This document shows, piece by piece, positions 11,762 through 53,937 of a stretch of 64,000 nt of DNA. A model generated the notes under the pieces. It did no database searches, was not told the DNA's origin, and saw nothing but the letters and a program-made list of their open reading frames with translations. How positions within the stretch are numbered: position 1 is the stretch's first letter; each line of letters begins with the position of its first letter. The translations under genes were made by a program, and so were the position numbers. Source of the stretch: Vicinamibacterales bacterium (GTDB taxonomy: Bacteria; Acidobacteriota; Vicinamibacteria; Vicinamibacterales; UBA8438); NCBI GenBank assembly GCA_965207675.1, contig CBDBMY010000008.1, positions 8,545 through 72,544 on the forward strand. Reading direction: 5' to 3'.

Positions 11762-11806
11762 CGTCCCAGCCCGCCCTGCACCGTCGTTCTGCGGCACAGA
11801 CTCCTA
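11762..11806 (-). repeat. Family A repeat, 5' module only (after rpsE stop)
   Basis: Sense strand: TAGGAGTCTGTGCCGCAGAACGACGGTGCAGGG... The TAG is the rpsE stop codon. Confidence 0.75.
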
Positions 11807-12319
11807 GACCGCCGTCAACTCCTCGAGATCGATACCGCGCAGCCGCGCCACCGAAACCGGATCCTTCAGCTCCATGAGTCCGGTGAAGGTGGCCCGCACG
11901 ACGTTGTGCGGATTCTGCGTCCCCAGAGACTTGGTCAGGATGTTCTGCACGCCGGCCGACTCCAGGACCGCGCGCACGGCGCCGCCGGCGATGATGCCGG
12001 TGCCTTCGGGAGCCGGCTTCAGCAGCACGCGGCCGGCCCCGAAGCGCCCGACCACCGTGTGGGGTATCGTCGTGCCGGCGAGGGGCACGCGGAGCAGCGC
12101 CTTCTTGGCCGCTTCGATCCCCTTCTTGATGGCCGACGGCACCTCCTTGGCCTTGCCGACCCCGAACCCGACCACGCCGTGGCCGTCGCCCACGACCACG
12201 AGGGCGCTGAAGCTCAGGTTCTTGCCGCCCTTGACCACCTTCGTGACGCGGTTGATGGAGACGACCGTGTCCTTCAGGTCGAAATCGTTGGGGTCGATCT
12301 TGGCTCGCGTATGGTTCAT
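11804..12319 (-). CDS. rpsE: 30S ribosomal protein S5
   Basis: Inner part of ORF 11804..12451: ...[33 protein letters not shown]... Start is ATG 12319 (alternative ATG 12349). Confidence 0.9.
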
Positions 12320-12384
12320 GGCATGTCCCGGCAGCCTTTGTTCACCCATGCCGGCAGGATGATCGTTCCCGGCGGCGGCAACGG

Positions 12385-12420
12385 CCCCGCCGCATTCCAG
12401 CGGCGATGCGTCCCGCCTGA
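12385..12420 (-). repeat. Family B intergenic repeat, copy 2
   Basis: Plus strand: ccccgccgcattccagcggcgatgcgtcccgcctga, followed by a gactcc...ggagtc inverted repeat. Confidence 0.7.
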
Positions 12421-12522
12421 CTCCGTTGCTCCCCGGCGGAGTCCATCGCACCGCCTCGTCGGGCCCGGCGTTCCCTGAAGCCTGCCGGCGCGTCGGCGCC
12501 GGGCGGCGTTCACCGCGGGCCG

Positions 12523-12897
12523 CTAGAATCGCAGCCCGGCCTCCCTCGCCGCGTCTGCGACCTTGCGGACCCGGCCGTGATACAGAAACCCGCCCCGATC
12601 GAAGACGACGCTCCTGATGCCCTTGTCGAGCGTCCGCTCCGCGATCAGCCGTCCCACCACCCCGGCGCCGGCCACGTTTCCGCCCGAGGCACCGTCCGTG
12701 AAGCTCGCCTTGATCGCGGGCTCGGTGCTCGACGCCGACGCCAGCGTGATGCCGTTCGAGTCGTCGATGACCTGGACCGCAATGTGCCCCAGGCTCCGGA
12801 AGACCGACATCCGCGGGCAGCCCGGCGTCCCCTTGATCTTCTTGCGCTGGCGCAGTGCAATCCGGCGGCGCCGGTCCTTCTTCGTCTTGACCTTCAT
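12523..12897 (-). CDS. rplR: 50S ribosomal protein L18
   Basis: Inner part of ORF 12523..13341, from ATG 12897: [21 protein letters not shown]...[26 protein letters not shown]. Confidence 0.94.
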
Positions 12898-12921
12898 GAC
12901 ACGTTCGACCCCGCGAGCCGG

Positions 12922-13027
12922 CCCGCCAATCGTCGCCGAACGCGACCGCAAGGTCGCGCCGCGGCCTCCGCCTGGCGCCCGGCCGACCCCTACAGGAGTC
13001 CGCGCCGTTCTGCGGTGCAGGCTCCTA
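12922..13027 (-). repeat. Family A repeat (after rplF stop), with GCGACC-GCAA-GGTCGC hairpin module
   Basis: Sense strand: TAGGAGCCTGCACCGCAGAACGGCGCGGACTCCTGTAGGGGTCGGCCGGGCGCCAGGCGGAGGCCGCGGCGCGACCTTGCGGTCGCGTTCGGCGACGATTGGCGGG. Confidence 0.85.
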
Positions 13028-13561
13028 GGCTCCCGTCTTGCCGACCTTCTTCTTGAGCACCTCGCCGGTGTAGCGAATCCCCTTCTGCTTGTACGGGTCC
13101 GGCTTGCGGAGGCTCCGAATGTCGGCGGCCACCTGTCCGACCGCCTGGCGGTCCACGCCCGACACCACCAGATGCGTCTGGTTCTCCACCGCCACCGAGA
13201 TGCCGTCGGGCACTTCGAACACCACCGGGTGCGAGTATCCGAGCGACATCGTGAGCCGCTGGCCGGCCACCTCGGCCCGGTAGCCGATGCCCACGATGTC
13301 CAGCTCCTTCTTGAACCCCGACGACACGCCGGCGACGGCATTCGCGACGAGACTGCGCCCGAGGCCGTGGAACTTGGCCATCCCGCGCTCCTCGCGCTCG
13401 GGGCGCGCTCGCAGGACCCCGTCCTCCATCTCGATCACGACGCCCGGCGGCAACGGTTGCCGCATCGTCCCCTTCGGCCCCTTGGCCTCGACCGCGTCCG
13501 CCGTGATCTGCACGGTCACTCCGGCCGGAATCGGGATCGGCCGCTTGCCTACTCGCGACAT
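13025..13561 (-). CDS. rplF: 50S ribosomal protein L6
   Basis: [19 protein letters not shown]...; full-length L6. Confidence 0.97.
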
Positions 13562-13604
13562 CTCGTCACTCCAACGCCAGGGGGGACAGCCCCTGGCGAG
13601 AACC

Positions 13605-13647
13605 CCCGCCGCACTCGAGCGGCGATGCAGCCCTCCTGCGCCCGGCA
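13605..13647 (-). repeat. Family B intergenic repeat, copy 3
   Basis: Plus strand: cccgccgcactcgagcggcgatgcagccctcctgcgcccggca. A 9-bp perfect hairpin CGCCAGGGG/CCCCTGGCG lies at about 13575-13598. Confidence 0.7.
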
Positions 13648-13700
13648 GGCGCCGCCGACACCCTCCCGGCGCGCGGCGGCGCGGGTCTCGCCATGGGCCG

Positions 13701-14111
13701 TCACCAGACCTTGCACAACACTTCGCCGCCCACGCCCTTCTTCACCGCTTCGCGCCCGGTCATGACCCCGCGCGAGGTGGTGAGAATGCTGGTGCCGAGG
13801 CCGGCGAGAACCGGGGGCACGCTGTCCCGGCCGCAGTAGACGCGCCGGCCGGGCCGGCTGACGCGCTGAATCCCGGAGATGACGTTCTCGCCGCGCGATC
13901 CGTACTTCAGCTGGATGCGAATCATCGGACGCGCCTGCTGCCCCCGTTCGACGACCACGTCCACCATCTTGAACGACTGGATGTACCCCTCGCTCTGCAG
14001 AATCCTCGCGATCTCCGTCTTGAGCCGCGATGCCGGGACGTCCACGCGCCGGCGATGTGCGGTGGTCCCGTTGCGGATTCTCGTCAACATATCGGCGATC
14101 GGATCAGTCAT
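13701..14111 (-). CDS. rpsH: 30S ribosomal protein S8
   Basis: MTDPIADMLTRIRNG...; full-length S8. Confidence 0.97.
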   Translation of the reverse strand: MTDPIADMLTRIRNGTTAHRRRVDVPASRLKTEIARILQSEGYIQSFKMVDVVVERGQQARPMIRIQLKYGSRGENVISGIQRVSRPGRRVYCGRDSVPPVLAGLGTSILTTSRGVMTGREAVKKGVGGEVLCKVW

Positions 14112-14162
14112 GTCTCTCTTGTCTGTCGACCCCGCGCCCGGGCGACGCGGCGCCCGGCATCG

Positions 14163-14348
14163 TCACCAGCTGCTCTTGGTCACCCCTGCGATGTCGCCCT
14201 CGAGCGCGAGCCGCCGGAAGCACAGGCGGCACAGCGCGAACTTGCGGATGAACCCCCGCGGCCGCCCGCAAAGGCGGCACCGGTTGCGAAGCCGCACCTT
14301 GAACTTCGGCGGCTTTTCCTCCCTGACCATCTTCGCAATCGTCGCCAT
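14163..14348 (-). CDS. rpsN: 30S ribosomal protein S14, short zinc-binding (type Z) form
   Basis: 61 aa with CRLCGRPRG...CRLCFR. Confidence 0.95.
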
Positions 14349-14368
14349 CGAGCTCCCCTCGCACCTTG

Positions 14369-14450
14369 CCCGCCCGTCGTCGCCGAACGCGACCGCGGGG
14401 TCGCGCTTCGGCCTCCCCGGGAACCGCGCCGCGCCACGGGCGCGCTCCTA
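14369..14450 (-). repeat. Family A repeat, degenerate copy (after rplE stop)
   Basis: Sense strand starts TAGGAGCGCGCC..., contains the GCGACC-loop-GGTCGC hairpin and ends ...GGCGACGACGGGCGGG. Confidence 0.6.
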
Positions 14451-14993
14451 ATTCGTTCGGAACGGCATCCCCATGAGCTGGAGGAGCCGGCGCCCCTCTT
14501 CGTCCGTGTTGGCGGTGGTCACCACCGAGATGTTCATCCCGCGCGACTTGTCGACCTTCATGTAGTCGATCTCGACGAACATCAGCTGGTCCGGAAGCCC
14601 CAGCGTGTAGTTGCCGCGTCCGTCGAACCCCTTGGGCGACACGCCGCGGAAGTCCCTGACGCGGGGCAGCGCGATGGAGATCAACCGGTCGAGAAACTCG
14701 TACATGCGATCGCGCCGCAACGTGACCACCGAGCCGATCGGCATCCCCTGACGCAGCTTGAACTGGGCTATCGACTTCCGGGCGCGGGTCGTCAACGGCT
14801 TCTGGCCGGTGATGCGCGTGAGGTCGTCGCTGCCCGCGTCGATCAGCTTCACGTTCTGCGTGGCCTCGCCGAGGCCCATGTTCACCACGATCCGCTGAAT
14901 CTTGGGCACCGCCATGACGTTGGCGTACCCGAACTCCTTCGTGAGCGCGGGAACCACGCTCTCGTGGTAGCGCGCTCTCAGTCGGCTAGTCAT
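14448..14993 (-). CDS. rplE: 50S ribosomal protein L5
   Basis: Inner part of ORF 14448..15014, from ATG 14993 (ATGA overlap with the rplX stop): [23 protein letters not shown]... Confidence 0.94.
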
Positions 14994-15322
14994 CGATCCA
15001 CGACCCCGTCGCACTTGCGGCAGATCCGAACCTTGCGGCCGTCACCGAGGAGGCGCTTGCCGATACGGGTGGGCGCGCCGCACTCCGGGCAGACGAGCTG
15101 AACGTTCGACGCGTGGAACGGCGCCTCGCGCTCCACGATGCCGCCCTTCACGTTCTGCCTGGGGTTGGGGCGGGTGTGGCGCTTGACGATGTTCACGCCC
15201 TCGACGATCAGCCGGTTCTTGGCCGGCACGAGCTGCAGGACGCGCCCCCGCTTCCCCCGGTCCCTGCCCGTGATGACGACGACGTTGTCGTTCTTCCGGA
15301 TGGGGGTCTGTAGTCTCGACAT
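14990..15322 (-). CDS. rplX: 50S ribosomal protein L24 (C-terminal CxxC...CxxC)
   Basis: ...[21 protein letters not shown]... KOW motif. The tail has CPECG...CRKCDG. Confidence 0.95.
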
Positions 15323-15341
15323 GGCTCACACGCTCGCGGCT

Positions 15342-15710
15342 TCAGAGTACTTCCGGCGCCAGAGAGATGATTCTCATGAACTTGCGTTCCCGAAGCTCGC
15401 GCGCCACCGGCCCGAAGACCCGGGTCCCGATGGGCTCGCCCTGCTCGTTGACGAGGACCGCCGCGTTCCGGTCGAAACGGATGTAGCTGCCGTCTCGCCG
15501 GCGGTGCTCCTTCGCCGTCCTCACGATGACCGCCCGCACGACCTGGCCCTTCTTGACCGCCGACCGCGGAGCCGCTTCCTTCACCGACGCCGTAACGAGG
15601 TCACCCAGCTTCGCGAAGCGACCGGTCGACCCGCCGATCGGGTTGATGACCGCGATCTTCCGGGCCCCGGAGTTGTCCGCGACCTCGAGGATCGATTGCA
15701 TCTGGATCAT
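15342..15710 (-). CDS. rplN: 50S ribosomal protein L14
   Basis: Inner part of ORF 15342..15875, from ATG 15710: [19 protein letters not shown]... Confidence 0.96.
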
Positions 15711-15802
15711 GGTTCTGTGCTCGCTCTGCCGGGGACCCGAACGCCTCGCGGCCCGCCCGTCGTCCCCTCCCGCCGCGCCGCCGCCCGGCCGCGCCGCGGG
15801 GA

Positions 15803-15935
15803 ACCTGCGCCCTTCCATGGCGCAGACTCCCGGACCGCCAATCGTCGCCTCCGGCTCCGCTTGGCGCCCAACCACCCCTGCCAGGAGGTCTGCGCCTTCT
15901 CCGGAGGCGGCACCGCTCTGCGGCGCCGACTCCTA
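15803..15935 (-). repeat. Family A repeat, long form (after rpsQ stop)
   Basis: Sense strand: TAGGAGTCGGCGCCGCAGAGCGGTGCCGCCTCCGGAGAAGGCGCAGACCTCCTGGCAGGGGTGGTTGGGCGCCAAGCGGAGCCGGAGGCGACGATTGGCGGTCCGGGAGTCTGCGCC... Confidence 0.85.
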
Positions 15936-16187
15936 GACCGTCTTCGCCCGTTCGACCACCCTCACGACGGCCCAGCGCTTGCGCCGGCTGAGGGGCCGGG
16001 TCTCGACGATGGAGACGACGTCGCCCTCTCTCGCGTAGTTGCCCGGATCGTGGGCCATGAACTTCGACGTCCGGCGCTGAATCTTGCCGTAGAGTCCGTG
16101 GCGCACGCGGCGCTCGACGGCCACGACGACGCTCCGATCCATCTTGCCGCTGACGACGACGCCCTGGATTTCTGCCTTAGTCCCCAT
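15933..16187 (-). CDS. rpsQ: 30S ribosomal protein S17
   Basis: ...[22 protein letters not shown]... Confidence 0.95.
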
Positions 16188-16416
16188 CGGCTGCTTCTTT
16201 CGTCTCGCTCGCCGGCGCCTCGATGCCGAGCGCGTAGCCGCGCAGGAGCGTCTTGACCCGGGCCAGGTCCTGCCGGGTCCGACGCAGCTTGTTGGCCGCT
16301 TCCTGCTGCCCCATCGACTTCTGCAGCCGAAGGCGGAACACCTCGTCGGCCAGCTCCCGCTCGCGCTGCTCGAGGTCCGACACGCCGAGCTCGCGGAGCT
16401 CCGTGATCGCGGTCAT
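16177..16416 (-). CDS. rpmC: 50S ribosomal protein L29
   Basis: [32 protein letters not shown]...; overlaps the rpsQ start by 11 nt. Confidence 0.93.
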
Positions 16417-16838
16417 GACGCCTCACCCCCCCCGAACCGGGTGGCGAACCTGGTGTGGATGGGCAGCTTGGCCGCGGCCAGACGCATCGCCTGCCGCGCC
16501 ACCGGCGCTTCGACCCCTTCCATCTCGAACAGAATGCGGCCCGACTTGACGACCGCGACCCACTGCTCGGGCGCGCCCTTGCCCTTGCCCATCCGGGTCT
16601 CCTGGGGCTTCTTGGTGATCGGCTTGTCCGGAAACACCCGAATCCAGATCTTCCCGCCGCGCTTGATGGACCGGGTCATCGCCACCCGCGCGGCCTCGAT
16701 CTGACGATCCGTCAGCCAGCACGGCTCCATCGCCCTCAGGCCGTAGTCGCCGAACGCCACCGTCGAGCCCCGCCACGCCTTGCCCGTCATGCGCCCGCGG
16801 TGCTGCTTCCGGTGTTTGACTTTCTTCGGCATCAACAT
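16413..16838 (-). CDS. rplP: 50S ribosomal protein L16
   Basis: [19 protein letters not shown]...; ATGA overlap with the rpmC start. Confidence 0.97.
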
Positions 16839-16885
16839 GACTGCTACCTCGCAGGTGCCCGGCGTCCCGGGCGGCGCATGCCTGA

Positions 16886-16988
16886 CCCGCCAATCGCCGC
16901 CTTTTCGGGGCCGCCTTGCGCCCGGCCGACCCTCCGGGGGAATCCGCGCCTTCTCCGGAGGCGGCGCCGTTCCACGCCCGGACGCCTA
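16886..16988 (-). repeat. Family A repeat (after rpsC stop)
   Basis: Sense strand: TAGGCGTCCGGGCGTGGAACGGCGCCGCCTCCGGAGAAGGCGCGGATTCCCCCGGAGGGTCGGCCGGGCGCAAGGCGG...GGCGGCGATTGGCGGG. Confidence 0.8.
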
Positions 16989-17666: not shown

Positions 17667-17700
17667 CTCGTCAACCCCTGGCCGCGCGTGCGGCGCAAAA

Positions 17701-17788
17701 CGTCCCGGCCCTCCAACCACCGCGGGCGGCTCTGTCCGACCCCGCAGACCCTCCGGGCGCCCGCGCCGTTCCCCGGCGCAGACTCCTA
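17701..17788 (-). repeat. Family A repeat, divergent copy (after rplV stop)
   Basis: Sense strand: TAGGAGTCTGCGCCGGGGAACGGCGCGGGCGCCCGGAGGGTCTGCGGGGTCGG...GGTGGTTGGAGGGCCGGG. Confidence 0.65.
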
Positions 17789-21124: not shown

Positions 21125-21227
21125 CCCGCCATTCGCCGCCCCGGCTCCGCATGGCGCCCGACCGACGCGCCGGCGAGTCCGCGCCTGCTCCGAGGCGGGG
21201 CCCTTCACGGCGCACCGCCACGGGCTG

Positions 21228-21230
<3 letters not shown>
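21125..21230 (-). repeat. Family A repeat (after rpsJ stop)
   Basis: Sense strand: TAGCAGCCCGTGGCGG...CCGCCTCGGAGCAGGCGCGGACTCGCCGGCGCGTCGGTCGGGCGCCATGCGGAGCCGGGGCGGCGAATGGCGGG. The closing stem is CGCCAT/ATGGCG. Confidence 0.8.
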
Positions 21231-21557: not shown

Positions 21558-21615
21558 GGCTTCATGTGGGGCTCGACCCCGGGAGCATGTCTTCCTCCGG
21601 CCGCGGCGCGGACGC

Positions 21616-22803
<1,188 letters not shown>

Positions 22804-26280: not shown

Positions 26281-26304
26281 CACTCTTCCGGAGGCGGCGG
26301 CGTC

Positions 26305-26323
<19 letters not shown>
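26281..26323 (-). repeat. Family A repeat, 5' half, overlapping the rpoC 3' end
   Basis: Sense strand: CAGGAGTCCGCGCCGTAGGACGCCGCCGCCTCCGGAAGAGTG. Its codons GAG-TCC-GCG-CCG-TAG give the rpoC tail ...ESAP*. Confidence 0.75.
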
Positions 26324-30587: not shown

Positions 30588-30667
30588 CCCGCCAATCGTC
30601 GCCTGCGGCTCCGCTTGGCGCCCGACCGACCCTGCCAGGAGTCTGTGCCGTTCTGCGGCGCGGACTC

Positions 30668-30670
<3 letters not shown>
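30588..30670 (-). repeat. Family A repeat, reference copy (after rpoB stop)
   Basis: Sense strand: TAGGAGTCCGCGCCGCAGAACGGCACAGACTCCTGGCAGGGTCGGTCGGGCGCCAAGCGGAGCCGCAGGCGACGATTGGCGGG. Confidence 0.88.
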
Positions 30671-37109: not shown

Positions 37110-37209
37110 CCCGCCCATCGTCGGCTTCGGCTCCGCCTGGCGCCCGACCAACCTTCCGGGAGTCTGCGCCTCCTGCCAGGAGGCGGGCTCTACGGCGCCG
37201 ACTCCTGCC
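37110..37209 (-). repeat. Family A repeat, overlapping the rplK 3' end
   Basis: Sense strand: CAGGAGTCGGCGCCGTAGAGCCCGCCTCCTGGCAGGAGGCGCAGACTCCCGGAAGGTTGGTCGGGCGCCAGGCGGAGCCGAAGCCGACGATGGGCGGG. Supplies the rplK tail ...QESAP*. Confidence 0.85.
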
Positions 37210-37649: not shown

Positions 37650-37783
37650 CACGCGCGACCTCGCGGTCGCGTCGGGAGCTTCGCTGACGCGAAACTCCTG
37701 CGGCCTCCGATTCGCCGCCCGACCAACCCGGCCGGGGCCGCCGCCAGCCGGCGACCGGCGCCGTTCCACGGCGCCGAGGTCTA
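37650..37783 (-). repeat. Family A-related composite repeat (after nusG stop)
   Basis: Sense strand: TAGACCTCGGCGCCGTGGAACGGCGCC...GGGTTGGTCGGGCGGCGAATCGGAGGCCGCAGGAGTTTCGCGTCAGCGAAGCTCC...GCGACCGCGAGGTCGC. Confidence 0.65.
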
Positions 37784-39004: not shown

Positions 39005-39067
39005 GGATCGAGCTACTCCACAATCAGAAGTGCGTTCTCCCGGACCGCGGCGCGAGTTCGCGGACGC

Positions 39068-40255
<1,188 letters not shown>

Positions 40256-40860: not shown

Positions 40861-40898
40861 GTATCCCAAACGTTCTGCGCCGGGCAACCCGGTGAAGT

Positions 40899-40932
40899 CC
40901 CCGCTGCATTCGAGAGCGATGCATCCCGCCGA
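40899..40932 (-). repeat. Family B intergenic repeat, copy 4 (tRNA-Thr/tRNA-Tyr spacer)
   Basis: Plus strand: ccccgctgcattcgagagcgatgcatcccgccga. Confidence 0.7.
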
Positions 40933-41108
40933 TCCGCCGCCGCCCTCCCGGCGCGGTGCGACGCGGAGCTTCACCTCGGGCTCCGGGCAGCCGCGACGCA
41001 CGCTCGAGGCCGGCCGGACCGGCAGGCGGACACCGACACCGTGGTCACCTCGCCAACGGAGATCACACCGGCCCGCCGAAACCCACCTGTCACGTGGAAG
41101 CAATCCGC

Positions 41109-42070: not shown

Positions 42071-42146
42071 CCCGCCAATCGTCGCCCGTGGCTCCGCTCG
42101 GTTGCCCAACCGACCCTGGCGGCGCGCGGCTACGGTGAAGACTCCC
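42071..42146 (-). repeat. Family A repeat, short form, overlapping the ispDF 3' end
   Basis: Sense strand: GGGAGTCTTCACCGTAGCCGCGCGCCGCCAGGGTCGGTTGGGCAACCGAGCGGAGCCACGGGCGACGATTGGCGGG. Gives the ispDF tail ...RESSP*. Confidence 0.8.
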
Positions 42147-43317: not shown

Positions 43318-43350
43318 GACGCGGCCCCTCGCAGACGGACGTACGTCGGC

Positions 43351-43522
43351 CGGCGCCCCGCCTTCACGTGAACGGTCCCTCCAGGGCCTGACCGACGCGG
43401 TCCACCGAAATCAGCTCGCAACCCGGTGAGGCGCACCAACCCGCGCCGGCGCCCCGCCTTCATGTGAACAGTCCCTCCAGGGCCTGACCGACGTGGTCCA
43501 CCGGAATCAGCTCGCAACCCGG
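43351..43522. repeat. Tandem duplication of the radA 3' terminus (76 nt x2, period 96)
   Basis: 43447-43522 (last 20 codons, TGA, 13 nt) is repeated at 43351-43426 with 4 mismatches, in the radA/ispDF spacer. Confidence 0.92.
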
Positions 43523-44821
43523 CGCGGACACGCCGTCCTCCCGGTCGCCCCTCGGCATGAAGCAGCGCGTGAACCCCATCTGCGCGGCCTCGCGAACCCG
43601 CAACCCGGGCTGCGTCGCGCCCCGGATCTCTCCCGCCAGCCCGACCTCGCCGAACAGGGCGGCGCCGGCCGGCACGGGCTGGTTGCGCAGGCTCGACGCC
43701 ACCGCCGCGACCACCGCGAGATCGGCGGCCGGCTCGTGCACGGGAATGCCCCCCGGCACGTTCACGAACACGTCCTCGCCGGCGAGCGACAGGCCCGCGC
43801 GCTTCTCGAGCACCGTCAGCAGCAGCGAGAGCCGATGGCGGTCGACGCCGTTCGCCACCCGCTGGGCGTTGCCGTAGACCCCGGCGCCGACGAGCGCCTG
43901 CACCTCGACGAGAATGGGCCGCGACCCCTCGAGCGAGCACAGCACCACCGACCCCGGCACCTCCGTCCTGCGTTCCGACAGGAACTGCGCCGACGGGTTG
44001 GCCACCGGTTGCAGCCCGCCGCGCGTCATCTCGAACACCCCCACCTCGCTCACCGCCCCGAAGCGGTTCTTCACGGCCCGTACGATCCGGTGCGCATGAT
44101 GGCGATCCCCCTCGAAGTAGAGCACGGTGTCGACGACGTGCTCGAGCACCTTGGGGCCGGCGAGGGCGCCGTCCTTGGTCACGTGCCCGACGACGAGGAC
44201 CGGCACGTTGCGGCCCTTGGCCACGATCAGGAGGCGGTTGGCCGCGTCGCGCACCTGGGCGACGGTGCCCGGGGCCGACTCGAGCTCGACCGAGAACAGC
44301 GTCTGGACCGAATCGACGACGACCAGATCCGGCGACAGCCGCGACACCTCGTCGACCACCCGCTCCAGGCACGTCTCCGCCAGCACGTGCAGCCGCGGCG
44401 GAGAGAGGCCGAGGCGTTCGCCGCGGCGGCGCACCTGGTGGGGGGACTCCTCGCCCGAGCAGTAGAGGACGGTCCGCCCCGCCGACGCGACCTCGGCCGA
44501 CGCCTGCAGCAGCAGCGTCGACTTCCCGATGCCCGGCTCGCCCCCGAGCAGGACCAGCGACCCCGGCACGAGGCCCCCGCCGAGCACCCGGTCGAGCTCG
44601 CTCACCCCGGTCGAGACCCGGTCCGCCTCCGACGCCTCGATGTCGGCGAAGAGCCGTGCTCCCCCGCCGGTCAGGGCCGGCCTCGAACCGGGGTCGGGGC
44701 GCTTCCCGACCTGCTCCTCGACCAGCGAGTTCCACTCGCCGCAGTCGGGGCACCGGCCCAGCCACTTCCGCGCCTGAGCGCCGCACGCCTGGCAGACGAA
44801 GATGGTGTCGGGTGACTTCAC
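43460..44821 (-). CDS. radA: DNA repair protein RadA/Sms
   Basis: ORF 43460..45064 overlaps alr and a repeat, so I chose GTG 44821: (M)KSPDTIFVCQACGAQARKWLGRCPDCGEWNSLVE. Walker A GGEPGIGKST; Lon-like C-terminal domain. Confidence 0.9.
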   Translation of the reverse strand: MKSPDTIFVCQACGAQARKWLGRCPDCGEWNSLVEEQVGKRPDPGSRPALTGGGARLFADIEASEADRVSTGVSELDRVLGGGLVPGSLVLLGGEPGIGKSTLLLQASAEVASAGRTVLYCSGEESPHQVRRRGERLGLSPPRLHVLAETCLERVVDEVSRLSPDLVVVDSVQTLFSVELESAPGTVAQVRDAANRLLIVAKGRNVPVLVVGHVTKDGALAGPKVLEHVVDTVLYFEGDRHHAHRIVRAVKNRFGAVSEVGVFEMTRGGLQPVANPSAQFLSERRTEVPGSVVLCSLEGSRPILVEVQALVGAGVYGNAQRVANGVDRHRLSLLLTVLEKRAGLSLAGEDVFVNVPGGIPVHEPAADLAVVAAVASSLRNQPVPAGAALFGEVGLAGEIRGATQPGLRVREAAQMGFTRCFMPRGDREDGVSAPGCELIPVDHVGQALEGLFT

Positions 44822-44870: not shown

Positions 44871-44960
44871 CCGACTCGACCGCGAGGTCGCGCCGCCGTT
44901 TCCAGCCGCCTCCCGGCCATACGCGCCGGGAGTCCGGGCGTTCTACGGCGCAGACTCCCC
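44871..44960 (-). repeat. Family A repeat overlapping the alr 3' end
   Basis: Sense strand: GGGGAGTCTGCGCCGTAGAACGCCCGGACTCCCGGCGCG...GCGACCTCGCGGTCGAGTCGG. Gives the alr tail ...GESAP*. Confidence 0.75.
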
Positions 44961-47487: not shown

Positions 47488-47504
47488 CTGGACCGGATCG
47501 GGGG

Positions 47505-47555
47505 TGACGCGGCGCCACCGCCCCGACCAACCCTCCCGGAGTCCGCGCCGGTCTA
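47505..47555 (-). repeat. Family A repeat, partial (after rplI stop)
   Basis: Sense strand: GTAGACCGGCGCGGACTCCGGGAGGGTTGGTCGGGGCGGTGGCGCC. Confidence 0.6.
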
Positions 47556-48092: not shown

Positions 48093-48107
48093 GACTTCAC
48101 CGCGGCC

Positions 48108-48377: not shown

Positions 48378-48515
48378 CCTTGCACCTCCGGAAGCGCGCC
48401 CCACGGCGCGCAGCGAGAATCGTCCCCCCGGGAGCCCGCGTCGTCCTGGCCGCGGCCCTGTGGCCGCGTTCGGCGGCGACGGGCGGGCCCTCCGTCGGGC
48501 GCCCGGCGAACCCGA

Positions 48516-49172
48516 CTAGGACGGCGACTCCTCGCCGCCGGCGGGTTCCTCCGACGCCGCGGCCGGGGATGGCTCCGCCGCCGTCTGCGGCTCCGGCGCG
48601 GCCTCCGCGGCGGGAGACGGCTGCGCCGCCGGCTCGTCCGCGGGCGACGCACCACCCGACGCCGCCGCCGGCGCCGCCGGCTGGGGCGCCGTCTCCGCCG
48701 GCGTCACCTCCGCCTTCGGCCCACTCCCGGCCGGAGACCCTCCCTCGGCCGGAGACCCGCCGTCCGGCTCCGCCGCGGGCGGCCGCGGCGGCGGCGCCTC
48801 CTCCGATCTGCGCGCAGCCCGACGCCGCTCGGCGTCCGCCTTGCGCTTCTCGGCCGCCCGCCGCGCCTTGCGCAGGTCGTCGTCGACCCGCACCGTGAGG
48901 TATCGCAGGACGTCGTCATGGACGCGCATCCGGCGTTCGAGCTCGGTCACCATCGTGCCCGGCCCGCTGATGAGCTGGACGACGTAGATGCCCTCCGTGA
49001 AGTTGCCGATCGGATAGGCGAGCTTGCGGCGTCCCCAGAGGTCGGTGTTCTCCACCGCGCCGCCGAGCTTTCCGATCTGGCCCTCCAGATCGCGCTGGAG
49101 CGTCTCCACCTCGGCATTGGCGACGGTGGGGGCGAGGACGTACACGAATTCGTATTGTCGTTCGTTGGGCAT
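48516..49172 (-). CDS. rpsF: 30S ribosomal protein S6 with long Pro/Ala/Glu-rich C-terminal tail
   Basis: Inner part of ORF 48516..49229, from ATG 49172 (AAGGAG upstream): MPNERQYEFVYVLAP... The S6 core is about 100 aa, followed by about 118 aa of low complexity. Confidence 0.92.
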   Translation of the reverse strand: MPNERQYEFVYVLAPTVANAEVETLQRDLEGQIGKLGGAVENTDLWGRRKLAYPIGNFTEGIYVVQLISGPGTMVTELERRMRVHDDVLRYLTVRVDDDLRKARRAAEKRKADAERRRAARRSEEAPPPRPPAAEPDGGSPAEGGSPAGSGPKAEVTPAETAPQPAAPAAASGGASPADEPAAQPSPAAEAAPEPQTAAEPSPAAASEEPAGGEESPS

Positions 49173-49252
49173 GCGGCTCCTTCTGGACTGACGGCCACCG
49201 GGGTGGCAAGGAGTGAACGAGGCGGGCACGAACGCACCCCTCTCGACTCACG

Positions 49253-49281
49253 AGATTAACGGACCGGACAATCGACGTCAA
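49253..49281 (-). promoter_or_regulatory. Candidate promoter of rpsF-rpsR-rplI
   Basis: Minus strand: TTGACG (49281-49276, overlapping the pth TGA stop), 17 nt, TAATCT (49258-49253). The leader to ATG 49172 would be about 75 nt. Confidence 0.45.
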
Positions 49282-49901
49282 CCGCGCGGACCGGCGCCGG
49301 CCGGCGAATCCTCGTCGTCCTTCTCGGCTTCCCGCCGATTGAACGCATTCATGACCGGGCCGATCCCGGCCTCCACGAACATCTCCACCGCATCGGCCGC
49401 CCGCCGCACCATGTCGTCCATCGCCGGCCGCTCGACGCGGTTGAATCGGGACAGGACCCGCCCGGACAGCCTCTGCCTCGGGTCGCCCCGCCCCACCCCG
49501 ACGCGAAGACGGGAGAAATCCTCCCCGGCGACGGCTTCGATTATCGAGCGCAGGCCGTTGTGCCCGCCGGACGATCCCCGACGGCGGGCCCGCAACCGGC
49601 CGAGCGGCAGATTCACGTCCTCGGTGACCACGAGCAGGTCGTCCGGATCGATGCGGTAGTAGCGCAGCAACGCGCCGACCGCGAACCCGCTACGGTTCAT
49701 GTAGGTCAGCGGCTTCGCCAGCAGGACCGCGCCGCGCCCCCCCGGCACCGCCGGGGCGTTGGCGAGCAGGGCGTCGGCCGGCGCGGACCGGAACACGAGG
49801 TCCCACCGCCGCGCCGTCTCGTCGACGACCTCGAAGCCCACGTTGTGCCGGGTTCCCCGGTACTCCTCGCCGGGGTTGCCGAGTCCCGCGATCAGCTTCA
49901 C
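49278..49901 (-). CDS. pth: Peptidyl-tRNA hydrolase
   Basis: Inner part of ORF 49278..50138, GTG 49901: (M)KLIAGLGNPGEEYRGTRHNVGF...GGHNGLRSI. No clear SD, so the start is uncertain. Confidence 0.88.
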   Translation of the reverse strand: MKLIAGLGNPGEEYRGTRHNVGFEVVDETARRWDLVFRSAPADALLANAPAVPGGRGAVLLAKPLTYMNRSGFAVGALLRYYRIDPDDLLVVTEDVNLPLGRLRARRRGSSGGHNGLRSIIEAVAGEDFSRLRVGVGRGDPRQRLSGRVLSRFNRVERPAMDDMVRRAADAVEMFVEAGIGPVMNAFNRREAEKDDEDSPAGAGPRG

Positions 49902-49956
49902 GGTCGTGCGCGCGGGAAGTCCGCGACCGCCGGAGGTGCCTTCACCGGCGGGAGCA

Positions 49957-50619
49957 TCAACCCTCTGCCTTGCTCCCCGCCTCGTCCGCCGCCTCGCCCT
50001 CGGCCTCGCCCTCGGCCTCCGCCTCGTCCTCCGTCTCGTCCGCCTCGAGCCTCGGCGCGATGACGTGGACGATGAGGGTCTCGGGGTCGCTGACCGGCTG
50101 CCACGACACTCCCTCGAGGAGATCCTTGAGACGGACACCCTGGCCGATCGTCAACGGCGAGACGTCGACCTCGATGTGCTCGGGAATCTCGGACGGCAGG
50201 CACGCGACGGCCACCTCGCGCTGCACGAAGTCGATCAGGCCGCCCTGCACCTTGACCCCCTCCGCCTCGCCCGACAGCTCGACGCGCACGGTGACGGTGA
50301 TGACCCTGTCCATGGCCACCCGATAGAAGTCGACGTGCAGGAGCCGGTGCGAGATGGGATCGACCTGATAGTCCTTGATCAGCACCTTGCTCGAGTCGCC
50401 GCTGCCGACGGTGAGGCCGATCAGGGTGTTGGCGCCGGCCTCCGAGTGGAGCACCCGCGACACCTCCTCGGGCTCGATGCTCACCGCCAGCGCACCCGAG
50501 GCGTCCGACCCTCCCGCGTCGCCGTAGACGACGCCGGGGATGCGGCCGCCGCGACGAAGCCGGCGGGCTACGCCCTTGCCGCGTTCAGACCGAAGCTCCG
50601 CGTTCAACGTGGTTTCCAT
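49957..50619 (-). CDS. rplY: 50S ribosomal protein L25 / general stress protein Ctc
   Basis: Inner part of ORF 49957..50685, from ATG 50619: METTLNAELRSERGKGVARRLRRGGRIPGVVYG... Acidic tail. Confidence 0.92.
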   Translation of the reverse strand: METTLNAELRSERGKGVARRLRRGGRIPGVVYGDAGGSDASGALAVSIEPEEVSRVLHSEAGANTLIGLTVGSGDSSKVLIKDYQVDPISHRLLHVDFYRVAMDRVITVTVRVELSGEAEGVKVQGGLIDFVQREVAVACLPSEIPEHIEVDVSPLTIGQGVRLKDLLEGVSWQPVSDPETLIVHVIAPRLEADETEDEAEAEGEAEGEAADEAGSKAEG

Positions 50620-50663
50620 GAATGACCTGTCTGGCAAGCGGATCGACCCGCCTGGCCCGGAGA

Positions 50664-50766
50664 GCGGCGCCGAACGCGACCGCAAGGCCGCGCCGCGGCC
50701 TCCGCTCGCCGCCCAACCAACCCTCCGGCAATCCGCGCCGTACCACCGCGCGGACTGCCGGCCCTA
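50664..50766 (-). repeat. Family A repeat, divergent, with GCGGCC-loop-GGTCGC hairpin module (after prs stop)
   Basis: Sense strand: TAGGGCCGGCAGTCCGCGCGGTGGTACGGCGCGGATTGCCGGAGGGTTGGTTGGGCGGCGAGCGGAGGCCGCGGCGCGGCCTTGCGGTCGCGTTCGGCGCC. Confidence 0.7.
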
Positions 50767-51714
50767 GACGAAAAGCGACGACACGGACGTCTCCTGGTGA
50801 ATGCTCTGAATCGCCTTTCCGAGCAACGGGGCGACGGACAGCACCTCGACCCGGTCCGACGCGGCGACCTCCGGCCGGGGGGGAATGGTGTTCGTGACCA
50901 CCAGCCTCTCGAGCGCCGACGCCTCGATGCGCTCGAGCGCGGGCCCCGACAGCACGCCGTGCACGGCGCACGCGATGACCCGCTCGGCGCCGTTGTCGTG
51001 CAGCGCCGCCACGGTCTGGACGAGCGTCCCCGCGGTGTCGACGATGTCGTCCTGGATGATGCACACGCGACCCCTGACCTCGCCCACGACGTGCATCACC
51101 TCGGCGCGGCCGTCCTCGGAGCGGCGCTTGTCGATGATCGCCAGGTCCGCGCCGAGCCGCTTGGCGTAGGCCCGCGCACGCTCGACGCCGCCGGCGTCGG
51201 GCGACACGAACACGACGCGCGGATCCTGGTCCTGATAGCCGGCGAGGTGCTGCATGAACACGGGGGCGGCGAACAGGTGATCGACCGGGATGTCGAAGAA
51301 CCCCTGGATCTGCGCCTTGTGCAGGTCCATGGTGAGGACCCGGTTGGCCCCGGCCGCGCACAGCAGGTTCGCCACCAGCTTCGCCGAGATCGGGACCCGC
51401 GGCTTGTCCTTCCGGTCCTGCCGCGCGTAGCCGTAGTAGGGCATCACGGCGGTGATGCGGGCCGCCGACGACCGCCGGAACGCGTCGATCATGACGCACA
51501 GCTCGACGAGGTGCGAATCGACGGGCGTGCACGTCGGCTGCAAGATGAACACGTCCGCGCCGCGGATGTTCTCGTCGATCCGGAACGACACCTCCGTGTC
51601 GGCGAACCGCCTCAGATTCGCGCGGCCCAGGGGGGTGCCCAGGTAGTCGGCCATCTCCCGCGCCAACCGTGGGTGCGCGCTGCCCGAGAAGAGTTTGAGT
51701 TGCCCGTTCAGCAT
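50764..51714 (-). CDS. prs: Ribose-phosphate pyrophosphokinase
   Basis: Inner part of ORF 50764..51855, from ATG 51714: MLNGQLKLFSGSAHPRLAREMADYLG...; PRPP loop DDIVDTAGT. Confidence 0.95.
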   Translation of the reverse strand: MLNGQLKLFSGSAHPRLAREMADYLGTPLGRANLRRFADTEVSFRIDENIRGADVFILQPTCTPVDSHLVELCVMIDAFRRSSAARITAVMPYYGYARQDRKDKPRVPISAKLVANLLCAAGANRVLTMDLHKAQIQGFFDIPVDHLFAAPVFMQHLAGYQDQDPRVVFVSPDAGGVERARAYAKRLGADLAIIDKRRSEDGRAEVMHVVGEVRGRVCIIQDDIVDTAGTLVQTVAALHDNGAERVIACAVHGVLSGPALERIEASALERLVVTNTIPPRPEVAASDRVEVLSVAPLLGKAIQSIHQETSVSSLFV

Positions 51715-51776
51715 CGCCGCCGATCCGATCCGGCAAGGCCGTTCACGGGAGAACGCCGCCGCCGGAGACGCCGGTC

Positions 51777-51851
51777 TGGCTGGGGCGGAAGGATTCGAAC
51801 CTTCGAATACGGGATCCAAAGTCCCGCGCCTTACCACTTGGCCACGCCCCA
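51777..51851 (-). tRNA. tRNA-Gln (anticodon UUG)
   Basis: TGGGGCGTGGCCAAGTGGTAAGGCGCGGGACTTTGGATCCCGTATTCGAAGGTTCGAATCCTTCCGCCCCAGCCA. Confidence 0.9.
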
Positions 51852-51904
51852 TCAAGCGCAGGCCCGTCCCGCACGCAGCACCCGCCGACTACCGCGAACC
51901 CGTT

Positions 51905-51933
51905 ATTCTAACCGGCCGCCCTCGCCCCATCAA
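51905..51933 (-). promoter_or_regulatory. Candidate promoter of tRNA-Gln-prs-rplY-pth
   Basis: Minus strand: TTGATG (51933-51928, overlapping the ispE TGA stop), 17 nt, TAGAAT (51910-51905). Confidence 0.5.
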
Positions 51934-52889
51934 GGCTCGGCCGCGCCGCGCCGCGGTCGAACCAGGAACCGGCGCGCGAGCCCGGCCCGGTCCATCGTCC
52001 GGGTGACCCACGCGGTCCACCCCGGGCGGCCGCGCAGGCGCCGGACCGCGCCTGCGGCCGCGTCGCGGCGCTCGAAGAGGCCGAACACCGCGGAGCCGCT
52101 GCCCGTCATGCCGGCCCGGCCGGCGCCGGCCTCCGAAAGCAGCCCGATCGCCGCGCCGATGCCGGCCCGACGCCTCGCCACCGGCTCCTCGAGGTCGTTC
52201 CGGAGCCCCTCGAGCACGAGCGCCGCCCCGCAAAACCGCACCGGCGGCGCGGCGGCCCTCCCGGCCGCCGGTCCCCGGCCCGCACGGCCCCGGTCTTCAT
52301 CGAGCCAGCCGTAGGCGGTGGCGGCCGAGACGCCGTACGGCGGAGCCGCCACCACCACCCACCGCCGGGCCTGCTCGGCGAGCGGGTGAACCTCGTCGCC
52401 GCGCCCCAACCCGAGAGCCGTGCCGCCGACGAGGAAGAAGGGGCCGTCCGCCCCCACCTCGGCGGCCAGCGCGTGAAGCCGACCCGGGGGCGGCGTTCGT
52501 CCCCACAGGAGGCACAGGCCCCTCAGCGCGGCCACCGCGTCGGCGGTGCCGCCCCCCAGGCCCGCCGCCACCGGAATCCGCTTCCGGATGGTCACCGCGA
52601 CGCCCCGCACCTCGCCGCTCCCGCCCAGCTCGGTCCAGAGGCCCTGCGCGGCCCGGTGCACCAGGTTGTCCCTTCCCGAGGGCACCTCGGCGGCGGAGCA
52701 ACGAATGCGGCAGTCCCCCTCGACCGCCCGCAACGTCAGGGTGTCGTGCAAGCCGATGGACTGCAGGATGGTGCGCAGATCGTGGAAGCCGTCGCGGCGC
52801 CGGCCGCCGACCCGCAGGTCGAGGTTGACCTTGGCGTGCGCCCGCAGGGTCACCCGCCGGCGCGGTCCGGCCGCCGGCGAAGCGCTCAT
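51930..52889 (-). CDS. ispE: 4-diphosphocytidyl-2-C-methyl-D-erythritol kinase
   Basis: Inner part of ORF 51930..53681, from ATG 52889 (ATGA overlap with the upstream stop): ...[22 protein letters not shown]...; GHMP motif PVAAGLGGGTADA. Confidence 0.92.
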   Translation of the reverse strand: MSASPAAGPRRRVTLRAHAKVNLDLRVGGRRRDGFHDLRTILQSIGLHDTLTLRAVEGDCRIRCSAAEVPSGRDNLVHRAAQGLWTELGGSGEVRGVAVTIRKRIPVAAGLGGGTADAVAALRGLCLLWGRTPPPGRLHALAAEVGADGPFFLVGGTALGLGRGDEVHPLAEQARRWVVVAAPPYGVSAATAYGWLDEDRGRAGRGPAAGRAAAPPVRFCGAALVLEGLRNDLEEPVARRRAGIGAAIGLLSEAGAGRAGMTGSGSAVFGLFERRDAAAGAVRRLRGRPGWTAWVTRTMDRAGLARRFLVRPRRGAAEP

Positions 52890-53701
52890 ATCGGCTCGAC
52901 CGGGACCTCCAGCGGGCCCGCTCCGCTCAGCTCCTCGAGGGTCGCGGGCGCGACGCCCGCGGGCACCGCCAGCTGGAACGCCTCGGCACCGAGCGCGACG
53001 TTGGTGCTGACCTGCGACAGCCGGGCCGTCAGGTCGGTCAGGGGTCCGCCACCGCCGCCATCCGCGTCGTCGGACGACACGCGCACCAGCCGCGGCAGGC
53101 GGCGGCGGAACTCGCTGTACTCGATCGTCAGCCCGTCCCGCGTCCCCGCGGCCAAGCGGTGCTCGCCCTCGATCTCGCGCAGCCACGCGACGGCGCCCCC
53201 GGCGAGATCGACGGCGATCCAGTCGCCGTGGCGCCGCCCCGCGGTCGGCCGCGGCTCGGGCACCAGGCAGCCGGTCAGCACCGCCCTCAGGTCGTCCGGC
53301 CCGAACGGGATGCCGGTCAGGCTCGCGAGCAGCTCGGGGGCCGGCACCCCCGTCACCACCCGGGCCTCCCGGGTCAGCCACAACGTGGCGTCCCCCGGCG
53401 ACGCCACCAGGTAGAAGACCGGCGCACCGAACGGGGCCAGTCCCTCCAGCCGCATGGACGCGGGCTCGGCCAGCCCGGCCCGCACCCGCCCCCTCAGCGC
53501 GGCCCCGCCGCCTCTCCCGCTGAGCCGGATCAGCGTCTCGACGGACCTCACGCTCCGGCACTCGGAAACCACCGAGCCGAAGAGTCGTTCGAACCCCGGG
53601 TAGGGGATGCCGGGTCCGTCCGGGAGGATCAGCCGGGTCGAGCCGCAGCCGGCCGCCACGGCGGCGGCAGAGCAGATCCACAGGACGCGAAGACCGCTCA
53701 T
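52886..53701 (-). CDS. Outer-membrane lipoprotein, LolB-like (assignment mainly by position upstream of ispE)
   Basis: Inner part of ORF 52886..54181, from ATG 53701: MSGLRVLWICSAAAVAAGCGS... (signal peptide plus lipobox-like AAGC). Sits in the TPR/lolB/ispE/tRNA-Gln/prs order known from proteobacteria. Confidence 0.65.
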   Translation of the reverse strand: MSGLRVLWICSAAAVAAGCGSTRLILPDGPGIPYPGFERLFGSVVSECRSVRSVETLIRLSGRGGGAALRGRVRAGLAEPASMRLEGLAPFGAPVFYLVASPGDATLWLTREARVVTGVPAPELLASLTGIPFGPDDLRAVLTGCLVPEPRPTAGRRHGDWIAVDLAGGAVAWLREIEGEHRLAAGTRDGLTIEYSEFRRRLPRLVRVSSDDADGGGGGPLTDLTARLSQVSTNVALGAEAFQLAVPAGVAPATLEELSGAGPLEVPVEPI

Positions 53702-53743
53702 CGTTCGCCGCAACCGTTTCGACCCCGCCGTCGGGGCGCCCAA

Positions 53744-53833
53744 GCCGCCCGTCGGCTCCGCTGGGCGCGCAGCCGACCCTGCGGGGAGCCGGCGCCTCCT
53801 CCGGAGGCGCGCCATTCTACGCCGCGGACTCCC
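53744..53833 (-). repeat. Family A repeat, second of a tandem pair
   Basis: Sense strand: GGGAGTCCGCGGCGTAGAATGGCGCGCCTCCGGAGGAGGCGCCGGCTCCCCGCAGGGTCGGCTGCGCGCCCAGCGGAGCCGACGGGCGGC. Confidence 0.8.
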
Positions 53834-53835
53834 AG

Positions 53836-53937
53836 CCCACCCATCGTCGCCTACGGCTCCGCTGGGCGCCCAACCAACCGGCCAGGGAGTCTGCGCCTCC
53901 TCCGGAGTCGGCACCGTTCTACGGGCGCAGACTCCTA
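53836..53937 (-). repeat. Family A repeat, first of a tandem pair (after the TPR gene stop)
   Basis: Sense strand: TAGGAGTCTGCGCCCGTAGAACGGTGCCGACTCCGGAGGAGGCGCAGACTCCCTGGCCGGTTGGTTGGGCGCCCAGCGGAGCCGTAGGCGACGATGGGTGGG. Confidence 0.85.

Follow-up and report, generated by a model that had tools for sequence, protein, structure and literature searches.

Gene context and reality of the repeat

The stretch of DNA analysed here (the window) comprises 64,000 nt of contig CBDBMY010000008.1 (GenBank assembly GCA_965207675.1, positions 8,545 to 72,544 of the forward strand) and stems from an uncultured member of the Vicinamibacterales, a soil acidobacterium. Its minus strand carries a long series of translation and housekeeping genes, and the window holds 18-20 copies or fragments of one short, structured repeat that we call Family A. 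The family is real and has not been described before. We lean towards regarding it as a lineage-specific mobile repeat that has settled at the stop codons of essential operons.

The gene series begins with genes for a tetratricopeptide repeat (TPR) protein and a lolB-like protein, followed by ispE, tRNA-Gln, prs, L25, pth, S6, S18, L9, dnaB, alr, radA, ispDF and trmH. It continues with four tRNAs, tuf, L33, tRNA-Trp, secE, nusG, L11, L1, L10, L7/L12, rpoB, rpoC, S12, S7, fusA and a second tuf gene, and ends with the S10 and spc operons up to secY. In agreement with the gene map of a preliminary description of this DNA, copies lie within the rpoBC, S10/spc, L11/L1 and prs-L25-pth operons and in neighbouring housekeeping operons. 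The GC content of the window is 67-77% and that of the genome was taken as 69%. The ribosomal protein L4 finds its best matches in metagenome-assembled genomes (MAGs) labelled Vicinamibacterales or Acidobacteriota, with 75% identity to the closest species representative, and the sole sequences retrieved by an exact-protein look-up were metagenomic contigs sharing 96-99% identity with the window. Comparison sequences (close strains, relatives and metagenome contigs) bear an L with three digits, as in L001.

The preliminary description had listed 17 copies between 11762 and 53937. All 17 intervals hold the described sequence on the minus, gene-sense strand, but several are fragments or degenerate, and two copies had been overlooked (11361-11445 and 63714-63782). 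An nhmmer profile built from 16 copies yields 16 window matches with E<0.01, all on the minus strand, and nothing comparable in 20 block-wise dinucleotide-shuffled windows, which gave one match only (E=9.7). A covariance model built from 60 distinct, independent units gives 11 minus-strand matches in the window with E<1e-4, the best at 5.5e-18; its plus-strand matches are mirror images of the palindromic first helix only. The comparison of such models with shuffled controls had been proposed beforehand as a check on the family, and the family withstood it.

That the similarity reflects nothing but GC-rich low complexity, intrinsic terminators or ribosomal-protein leaders can be dismissed with near certainty. 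GC-rich DNA folds readily, and some single copies fold no better than their own shuffles, which speaks for such an origin. Against it stand the shuffled windows and the covariance-model E values, on which chance was rejected, and the recurrence of the same 84-nt unit in 57 independent contigs. Intrinsic terminators were rejected because no terminator-like site overlaps any copy and no copy has a T-run. Moreover, one and the same sequence is found after many different genes, and Rfam at its gathering threshold returns only six tRNAs in the window and no match for the repeat. Full-text literature searches for REP-type repeats (repetitive extragenic palindromes) in Acidobacteria/Vicinamibacteria or in ribosomal-protein operons found no published account of Family A.

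Anatomy and structure of the unit

Metagenomes were scanned with a degenerate 30-mer taken from mid-unit; of the 120 contigs recovered, 57 contain Family A according to the window-derived profile, with 113 matches in all. The anatomy and structure statistics below are drawn from 60 distinct units. The consensus reads TAG / GAGTCTGCGCC GTAGAAC GGYGCAGACTCC TGGC AGGGTTGGTTGGG CGCCMAGCGGAGCCGAAGGCGACGATKGGCG GGC / TAG, or in short TAG / GAGTCTGCGCC-GTAGAAC-GGYGCAGACTCC-TGGCAGGGTTGGTTGGG-CGCCAA..TTGGCG-GGC / TAG. A unit is about 84 nt long and reaches up to about 135 nt with apical loop modules. The preliminary description had the module order, the two palindromes and the optional modules right; its unit end was incomplete, since the unit also finishes in (C)TAG. 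The TAG-type triplets at the two outer ends are often decayed to CAG, TGG or CGG, and they are xTAG rather than strict GTAG. The base that precedes the 5' TAG is variable (C in 44, G in 12, T in 3 and A in 1 of the units), and the base before the 3' TAG is C in 57/60. TAG on both sides may be read as a 3-bp duplication or as a target plus the element's own end. On the opposite strand the 3' end reads CTAG-CC-CGCCAA...TTGGCG. Thus, the unit consists of two unlike TAG-tagged hairpins with the tags outside. Terminal inverted repeats are absent: the 5' end reads GAGTCTGCGCC, and the 3' end in reverse complement, GCCCGCCAATCG, bears no relation to it.

The linker between the hairpins is G/T-rich and nearly invariant (AGGGTTGGTTGGG, identical in 26/60 units); in the antisense orientation the linker is C-rich (CCCAACCAACCC) and could be a Rho loading site, and Rho-dependent polarity of that kind would account for the orientation bias through selection. 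The optional modules are insertions at the hairpin tips; helix 1 takes up GCCTCCGGAGRAGGC, and helix 2 takes up GCGCGACC-loop-GGTCGCG. The 7-nt loop of helix 1 reads GTAG or GTGG in 44/60 units, and the 5' tag is able to pair with a CTRG that follows helix 1. In two joined comparison sequences (L184 3491-3617 and L170 1800-1925) one Family A unit is interrupted at GGGTTG. The insert there is an unrelated sequence of about 200 nt whose terminal inverted repeats are imperfect (CCGTGAAAGT.. and ..ACTTTCATGCGG); it may be a miniature element of another kind for which Family A is an insertion target. Their 5'-only and 3'-only half-units were considered as an autonomous partner, which was rejected because they are a single unit split by the insert.

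Both helices are kept by compensatory change. Helix 1 has 15 pairs, the 5' CTAG among them, between alignment columns 1-17 and 26-41 (stem 12-15 bp, loop 7 nt), and helix 2 pairs columns 57-65 with 81-90 (stem 6-9 bp) and carries an apical stem of 3 bp (columns 68-70 with 75-77). The two helices are unrelated in sequence and fold separately. Paired cells amount to 90%, and changes on both sides occur in 15/27 pairs. None of 500 column shuffles reaches the observed pairing and covariation values, and with sliding partners pairing falls to 33-40%. At least six versions of helix 2 occur, each compensated with respect to the others (CGCCAA/TTGGCG, CGCCCA/TGGGCG, CGGCAA/TTGCCG, CGGAAA/TTTCCG, CACCAG/CTGGTG and CGGAGAGCG/CGCTCTCCG). 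An additional helix between CTRGC (columns 38-42) and the 3' GCTAG (columns 92-96) was rejected; the segments are complementary, but their covariation is no better than in shuffles.

The non-Watson-Crick cells are distributed unevenly between the strands, with 117 sense-strand G.U against 25 A.C (an A.C cell would be G.U if the opposite strand were read). In 59/60 units the sense strand forms the more stable fold, an effect due in part to the base composition of this G-rich strand. It is hence the sense strand that is under structural constraint, and this constraint may act on RNA or on single-stranded DNA.

Copies follow TAG stop codons and the direction of transcription

In the window, a copy lies at or within a few bases of the stop in 16/29 TAG-ending genes and in 0/19 genes ending in TGA or TAA (Fisher p=3e-5). 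The stops of all 48 minus-strand genes between 9417 and 56130 comprise 29 TAG, 18 TGA and 1 TAA; TAG is the commonest, unusual at 69% GC, and is frequent also in relatives without Family A.

All copies described in the following are on the minus strand. The TPR gene is followed by a head-to-tail pair. Its first member is a full unit with a helix-1 apical module (53836-53937, covariance-model E=9.8e-13), the first TAG of which is the TPR stop codon; the second, upstream of the lolB-like gene, has a 5' TAG decayed to TGG and a degenerate 3' end (53744-53835, nhmmer E=1.6e-8). Three nt past the prs TAG stop lies a unit with a helix-2 apical hairpin (GCGCGGCC..GGTCGCG) and a compensated helix-1 variant (50664-50766, z=-4.5). 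Directly after the L9 TAG stop there is a weak, truncated copy made of the helix-1 3' arm and the linker (47505-47555, nhmmer E=0.009, covariance-model E=0.037). Past the nusG TAG stop we find a diverged unit with extra hairpins (37650-37783, nhmmer E=2.6e-5), and the first TAG of the canonical minimal unit, the best covariance-model match, is the rpoB stop codon (30588-30670, E=5.5e-18).

In four genes (rpoC, L11, alr and ispDF) the first TAG is mutated and the frame continues to the in-frame TAG of the helix-1 loop, adding ..ESAP. Thus alr runs to the loop TAG (..GESAP*) of a unit with a helix-2 apical hairpin that both profile and covariance model recognise (44871-44960). The ispDF gene stops at the loop TAG (..RESSP*) of a unit that lacks the helix-1 3' arm (42071-42146, covariance-model E=5.9e-5), and L11 passes CAG to the loop TAG (..GQESAP*) of a unit with a helix-1 apical module (37110-37209, covariance-model E=7.6e-12). 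A 5' fragment extends rpoC to its loop TAG (..DQESAP*; 26281-26323, covariance-model E=0.0065).

Within the S10 and spc operons, units with a helix-1 apical module are found at the TAG stops of S10 (21125-21230, diverged, covariance-model E=1.4e-5), S3 (16886-16988, E=4.1e-5) and S17 (15830-15935, a full unit, E=1.4e-11). The S17>L14 spacer additionally holds the start of a second head-to-tail unit, degenerate and reduced to helix 1 (15782-15829, nhmmer E=0.0065); the interval 15803-15935, listed before as one copy, is thus a full unit plus the start of another. A unit with a diverged 3' half is located at the L22 TAG stop (17701-17788, covariance-model E=1.1e-6). Helix-2 apical hairpins characterise the units at the TAG stops of L6 (12922-13027, covariance-model E=5.2e-8) and L5 (14369-14450), the latter degenerate and recognised mainly through its fuller version in L001-L003. 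The S5 TAG stop is followed by a 5' fragment consisting of the helix-1 left arm and loop (11762-11806). The overlooked copy in the L30>L15 spacer is a complete unit that does not abut a stop codon and is the second-best covariance-model match (11361-11445, nhmmer E=9.5e-12, covariance-model E=1.7e-15). The other overlooked copy, degenerate and outside the span listed before (63714-63782, covariance-model E=0.0045), is antisense to both of its plus-strand neighbours, a cold-shock gene (62965-63603) and an open reading frame (ORF) starting near 63893. Copies are about 6-fold denser in the translation-gene region than a rough background.

The next start codon lies about 3 to about 90 nt beyond the 3' end of a copy; only the 5' end is anchored. 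The metagenome contigs contribute 69 non-redundant clusters, 50 of which consist of one unit, 16 of two and 3 of three. Every array is head-to-tail with one CTAG common to adjoining units, and inverted adjacent pairs do not occur in the 69 clusters. We scored the orientation of the neighbours by codon-position GC in fully open flanking coding windows of 300 nt. Coding flanks are co-oriented with the element in a ratio of 26:5 upstream and 25:7 downstream; random orientation predicts that 'upstream same' equals 'downstream opposite', which is not so here. About 14 contigs have at least two clusters; in about 6 of these, clusters occur on both strands and each is aligned with its own genes, as was checked by hand for L100, L104 and L198. 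Orientation hence tracks transcription and not one DNA strand, and a replication-strand basis was rejected on these grounds. In convergent spacers (L098, L104, L198) the 3' CTAG serves as stop of the opposite-strand gene. The rule that every copy has the orientation of its flanking genes, put forward in the preliminary description, is therefore strong but has exceptions, namely the window copy 63714-63782 and a trimer in a divergent spacer of L135. No promoter-like or terminator-like sites were predicted at the copies. Lying between co-oriented cistrons, the copies are very probably carried within the operon mRNAs.

These data bear on the possibility that Family A is a classical cut-and-paste MITE (miniature inverted-repeat transposable element), moved by a DDE transposase of the IS630/Tc1-like or IS5-like kind that targets CTAG/TAG and duplicates TA or TAG. 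CTAG is the target of IS630, which duplicates TA, and members of the IS5 group duplicate sites resembling CTAG; the TAG-type triplets on both sides of the unit and the arrays with one common CTAG would fit such a mechanism. We nevertheless hold it to be distinctly unlikely. The unit has no terminal inverted repeats, and a palindromic CTAG processed by a double-stranded mechanism predicts both orientations and inverted neighbours, in contrast to the ratios of 26:5 and 25:7 and the exclusively head-to-tail arrays. The variable base before the 5' TAG and the fixed base before the 3' TAG mean that at most TAG could be duplicated. A Pfam search of the window ORFs outside the operons and of the ORFs between opposite clusters showed no DDE transposase. 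Of the two likenesses first suggested for the repeat, the one to REP sequences and bacterial interspersed mosaic elements (BIMEs) is upheld by the anatomy, with two TAG-tagged hairpins, tags outside, a linker, loop variants and arrays, and the one to a classical MITE is not.

Distribution, turnover and divergence

Family A is lineage-restricted, recently dynamic and nearly neutral in place. The orthologous S10/spc spacers of L009, L010, L012, L019 and L022 mostly measure 2-30 nt, and other Vicinamibacterales hold unrelated repeats there; a conserved operon leader or regulator was rejected on this basis. Beyond the close strains, a Family A unit was found only in L012, a complete Vicinamibacterales chromosome the L4 of which is 63% identical to that of the window. 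This unit, detected by the window-only profile, lies at a different junction (S12>S7) and has compensated helix-2 changes. This chromosome with a Family A unit corresponds to OZ241978.1.

Presence/absence polymorphism, which had been suggested as a check, is evident at six junctions among sequences 90-99% identical to the window. The L30>L15 unit of the window is missing from the 97%-identical L001, and secY>adk has a unit in L001 and a 10-nt spacer in the window. At L5>S14 two units are present in L001-L003 and one in the window and L004; the position of the extra unit is precisely after the TAG and before the older copy. L3>L4 contains a unit in L129 and 22 nt in the window, rpoC>S12 a full dimer in L199 and a fragment in the window, and nusG>L11 two units in L111 and one diverged unit in the window. 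The 'empty' window alleles still contain GGGTTG and may be deletion remnants, which leaves gain and loss indistinguishable. Between the window and L001 the elements have diverged by 5.0%, against 6.1% for third codon positions and 4.8% for the remaining spacers. Since the elements diverge at about the level of synonymous sites and spacers, the copies are at most weakly constrained once in place.

Turnover of this kind speaks against a reading in which the copies exist because the host needs structured intercistronic RNA for processing, segmental stability or translational uncoupling and tuning, the sequence family being a vehicle only. We regard this as rather unlikely. It would account for the sense orientation relative to the genes on both sides, for the sense-strand G.U excess and the covarying helices, for the high density in the translation-gene region, and for the finding that the same spacers in other Vicinamibacterales are filled with unrelated stable hairpins. 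Helix 1 begins exactly at the stop codon, which recalls E. coli, where according to the summary given in PMC12306157 REPs at most 15 nt from a stop codon make ribosomes stall and reduce how much the upstream gene is translated. On the other side, the occupied junctions differ among genera and several relatives have 2-30 nt throughout; presence and copy number vary among strains that are 90-99% identical; and copies decay to fragments (11762-11806, 26281-26323, 47505-47555) and diverge about as synonymous sites do. The variable distance to the next start and the lack of an Rfam match add to this, and the covariation spans paralogous copies, so that a requirement of transposition explains it equally well.

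Other repeats in the same spacers

A second repeat, Family B, with the core CAGGCGGGATGCRTCGCCGCTCGAATGCRGCGGGGC and a small GCCGC/GCGGC hairpin, occurs on the minus strand at 11307-11384, 12366-12444, 13586-13663 and 40888-40946, in the spacers L30>L15, L18>S5, S8>L6 and tRNA-Thr>tRNA-Tyr, and is present also in L001 and L170. Unrelated hairpins occupy S10/spc spacers of further Vicinamibacterales/Acidobacteriota (L007, L010, L011, L013, L017, L018, L020; examples in L017 at 9093-9192, 11891-11995 and 14797-14878). They consist of tandem 6-8-mers followed by their inverted complement, such as GCTTCCA(n)..TGGAAGC(n), GCTGAAT(n)..ATTCAGC(n) and TTGGTAA(n)..TTACCAA(n), and extend from the stop codon nearly to the next start. 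We know of no description of such tandem-mer spacer hairpins. Yet another family, GCGCCTGCGGCCATGCC...GAGGCATCAGCG..GGGGGTGGGGCCCCGCGAGAGAGT, is found at many S10/spc junctions of two Acidobacteriota MAGs (L013, L016), for example as three tandem units between L6 and L18 in L016 (16798-17163).

Two other repeats of the window concern coding sequence. The two tuf genes have a 300-nt stretch that is 100% identical (21607-21906 and 39059-39358) and the same start of the downstream spacer (TAGGCGTCCGCG..), which suggests gene conversion. An 83-nt direct repeat (43349-43431 and 43445-43527, spacing 96 nt, 93% identity) covers the radA 3' end together with the spacer towards ispDF.

Discussion

GTAG REPs are short GC-rich stem-loops that occur in many copies, with stems of 5-13 bp and a total length of 20-40 nt (Di Nocera 2013; PMC3733652). 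Their GTAG tag is unpaired at one hairpin end and has the degenerate forms GYAG, GYRG and GTRG; they lie downstream of genes, often supply the TAG stop to flanking ORFs, and show G-T pairing and loop-length variants (PMC3733652). The 5' GTAG tag of REPs, to which the preliminary description had referred, is thereby confirmed from the literature. GTAG REPs, the BIMEs of enterobacteria and the REPINs of Pseudomonas are thought to be mobilised by Y1 transposases, the RAYTs (REP-associated tyrosine transposases). Like GTAG REPs, Family A consists of GC-rich hairpins with a terminal xTAG tag that is often the TAG stop of a gene, and it is extragenic, located mostly downstream of genes in unidirectional or convergent spacers. 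It shares with them sub-families with complementary stem changes, frequent G-T pairs and loop-length variants with self-complementary inserts (PMC3733652), as well as the restriction of families to a species or genus. Two unlike REPs with the tags outside and a conserved spacer are also the plan of BIME Y/Z heterodimers or 'HH' dimers, and tandem arrays of dimers, of 2-3 units in Family A, are that of BIME-2.

There are distinct differences as well. Helix 1 is long (12-15 bp) and has a 7-nt loop, whereas known GTAG REPs are single hairpins of 20-40 nt with 2-3 nt loops (PMC3733652). The two Family A hairpins are unrelated in sequence and hence do not form the single long hairpin of a REPIN; a BIME-like heterodimer fits and a strict REPIN does not. 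Unlike in GTAG REPs, orientation follows transcription, the host is an acidobacterium of the Vicinamibacterales, and a RAYT has so far not been linked to the family. Thus, Family A is new relative to the described REP families, as it conforms to the GTAG tag only loosely and differs in its orientation and array rules.

Some traits point to the IS200/IS605 family and its ORF-less derivatives (MITEs of the PATE type). From what is generally known of that family, its members also lack terminal inverted repeats and have different sub-terminal hairpins at the two ends; one strand matters, and the element lies immediately 3' of a fixed short sequence, needs no target duplication and has its orientation fixed to that sequence. 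The anatomy of Family A would be compatible with such a derivation, and the compatibility is one of anatomy. In contrast to IS200/IS605, the target would be a trinucleotide (TAG) that recurs as the right end of the element itself, orientation follows the genes and not the replication strand (lagging-strand template), no TnpA/TnpB partner was found in about 0.9 Mb, and the unit is much shorter than known derivatives. Correia elements (CREE) and ERIC-type repeats are short, abundant, co-transcribed with their neighbours and fold as RNA, as does Family A, and they can alter mRNA stability or processing. They are single long imperfect palindromes with terminal inverted repeats, a TA duplication in the case of Correia and both orientations, unlike the orientation-biased Family A without terminal inverted repeats.

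Taken together, a structured, strand-specific, dynamic, lineage-restricted and nearly neutral repeat is more readily understood as a mobile element whose active copies depend on their fold than as a conserved regulatory RNA. We therefore favour, with modest confidence, the reading of Family A as a lineage-specific non-autonomous mobile repeat of the REP/BIME/REPIN kind. Of the two explanations first offered, selfish DNA associated with TAG/CTAG has gained from the lineage restriction, the short or unrelated spacers of relatives, the six polymorphic junctions and the near-neutral divergence, and a functional intercistronic RNA has been weakened as the cause.

The mechanism that we propose would run as follows. 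A folded single-stranded DNA would spread, handled in trans by a Y1/HUH transposase of the RAYT-like or IS200/IS605-like kind. We infer that TAG is the target: the enzyme would place the folded top strand directionally just 3' of TAG. In a genome of 69% GC a harmless TAG would above all be a sense-strand stop codon. Insertion at the stop would keep the stop, fix the sense orientation and recreate TAG at the 3' end of the element, and this recreated TAG could seed tandem arrays. Insertion in the opposite orientation at the same CTAG would land inside coding sequence and be lost. Such a stop-codon filter alone would give the orientation lock, the anchoring at stop codons, the fixed C before the 3' TAG and the arrays from the regenerated 3' TAG. 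Exposure of the non-template strand under heavy transcription, or selection at the RNA level, could contribute and is here inseparable from the filter. Effects on the host would be side effects, for example stalled ribosomes where a 12-15 bp helix encloses the stop, or an obstacle in the way of 3' exonucleases. REPs can shield upstream mRNA from 3' exonucleases, and by analogy a secondary role of Family A RNA in stalling ribosomes at stops or in stabilising mRNA may exist.

Several observations weigh against a mobile repeat of the REP kind. The Family A tag is NTAG, mostly with C, and at helix 1 it can pair with the downstream CTRG, unlike the unpaired tag of GTAG REPs. Arrays are only head-to-tail, whereas known REP dimers are mostly head-head or tail-tail combinations of similar REPs and head-to-tail arrays are rare (PMC3733652). 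None of the junctions found provides a clean filled/empty pair that fixes the insertion point. No RAYT, IS200/IS605 TnpA or other transposase was detected in the window or next to copies (about 0.9 Mb), a result that is uninformative for a gene present about once per genome. This search combined the Pfam comparison described above, phmmer with E. coli RayT against 8138 ORFs and a scan for the HUH/YxxNP motifs. Gene-following orientation would be equally expected from RNA-level selection, and the unrelated hairpin repeats in the same spacers of other Vicinamibacterales hint at a host-side reason. One may imagine that intercistronic hairpins are a host-level requirement across Vicinamibacterales and that Family A is a domesticated mobile element serving as stop-codon RNA insulator, tuning termination and re-initiation or segmental mRNA stability; we consider this unlikely. 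Separately, L100 contains a 427-aa ORF (8989-10269, minus strand) located 202 nt downstream of a co-oriented copy; it has a helix-turn-helix-like N-terminus, no Pfam match and, by eye only, a loose likeness to an integrase or transposase.

Ribosomal-protein operons are normally almost without spacers. In this acidobacterium more than 12 structured inserts of 80-135 nt are tolerated in the S10/spc, L11/L1 and rpoBC transcripts, and where an insert starts on the stop codon the terminating ribosome must open a helix of 12-15 bp. The hairpin repeats of sister genera, unrelated but situated at the same junctions, merit a study of their own. If units do land beside sense-strand TAG stops, this would be a simple and harmless entry of selfish DNA into essential operons, and it would account at a stroke for both the orientation lock and the tandem arrays. 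Family A would extend the REP/BIME type of element to an uncultured order of soil acidobacteria. With many paralogous copies, natural presence/absence variants and a calibrated model, Family A offers a tractable case for the effects of such elements on the protein stoichiometry of operons.

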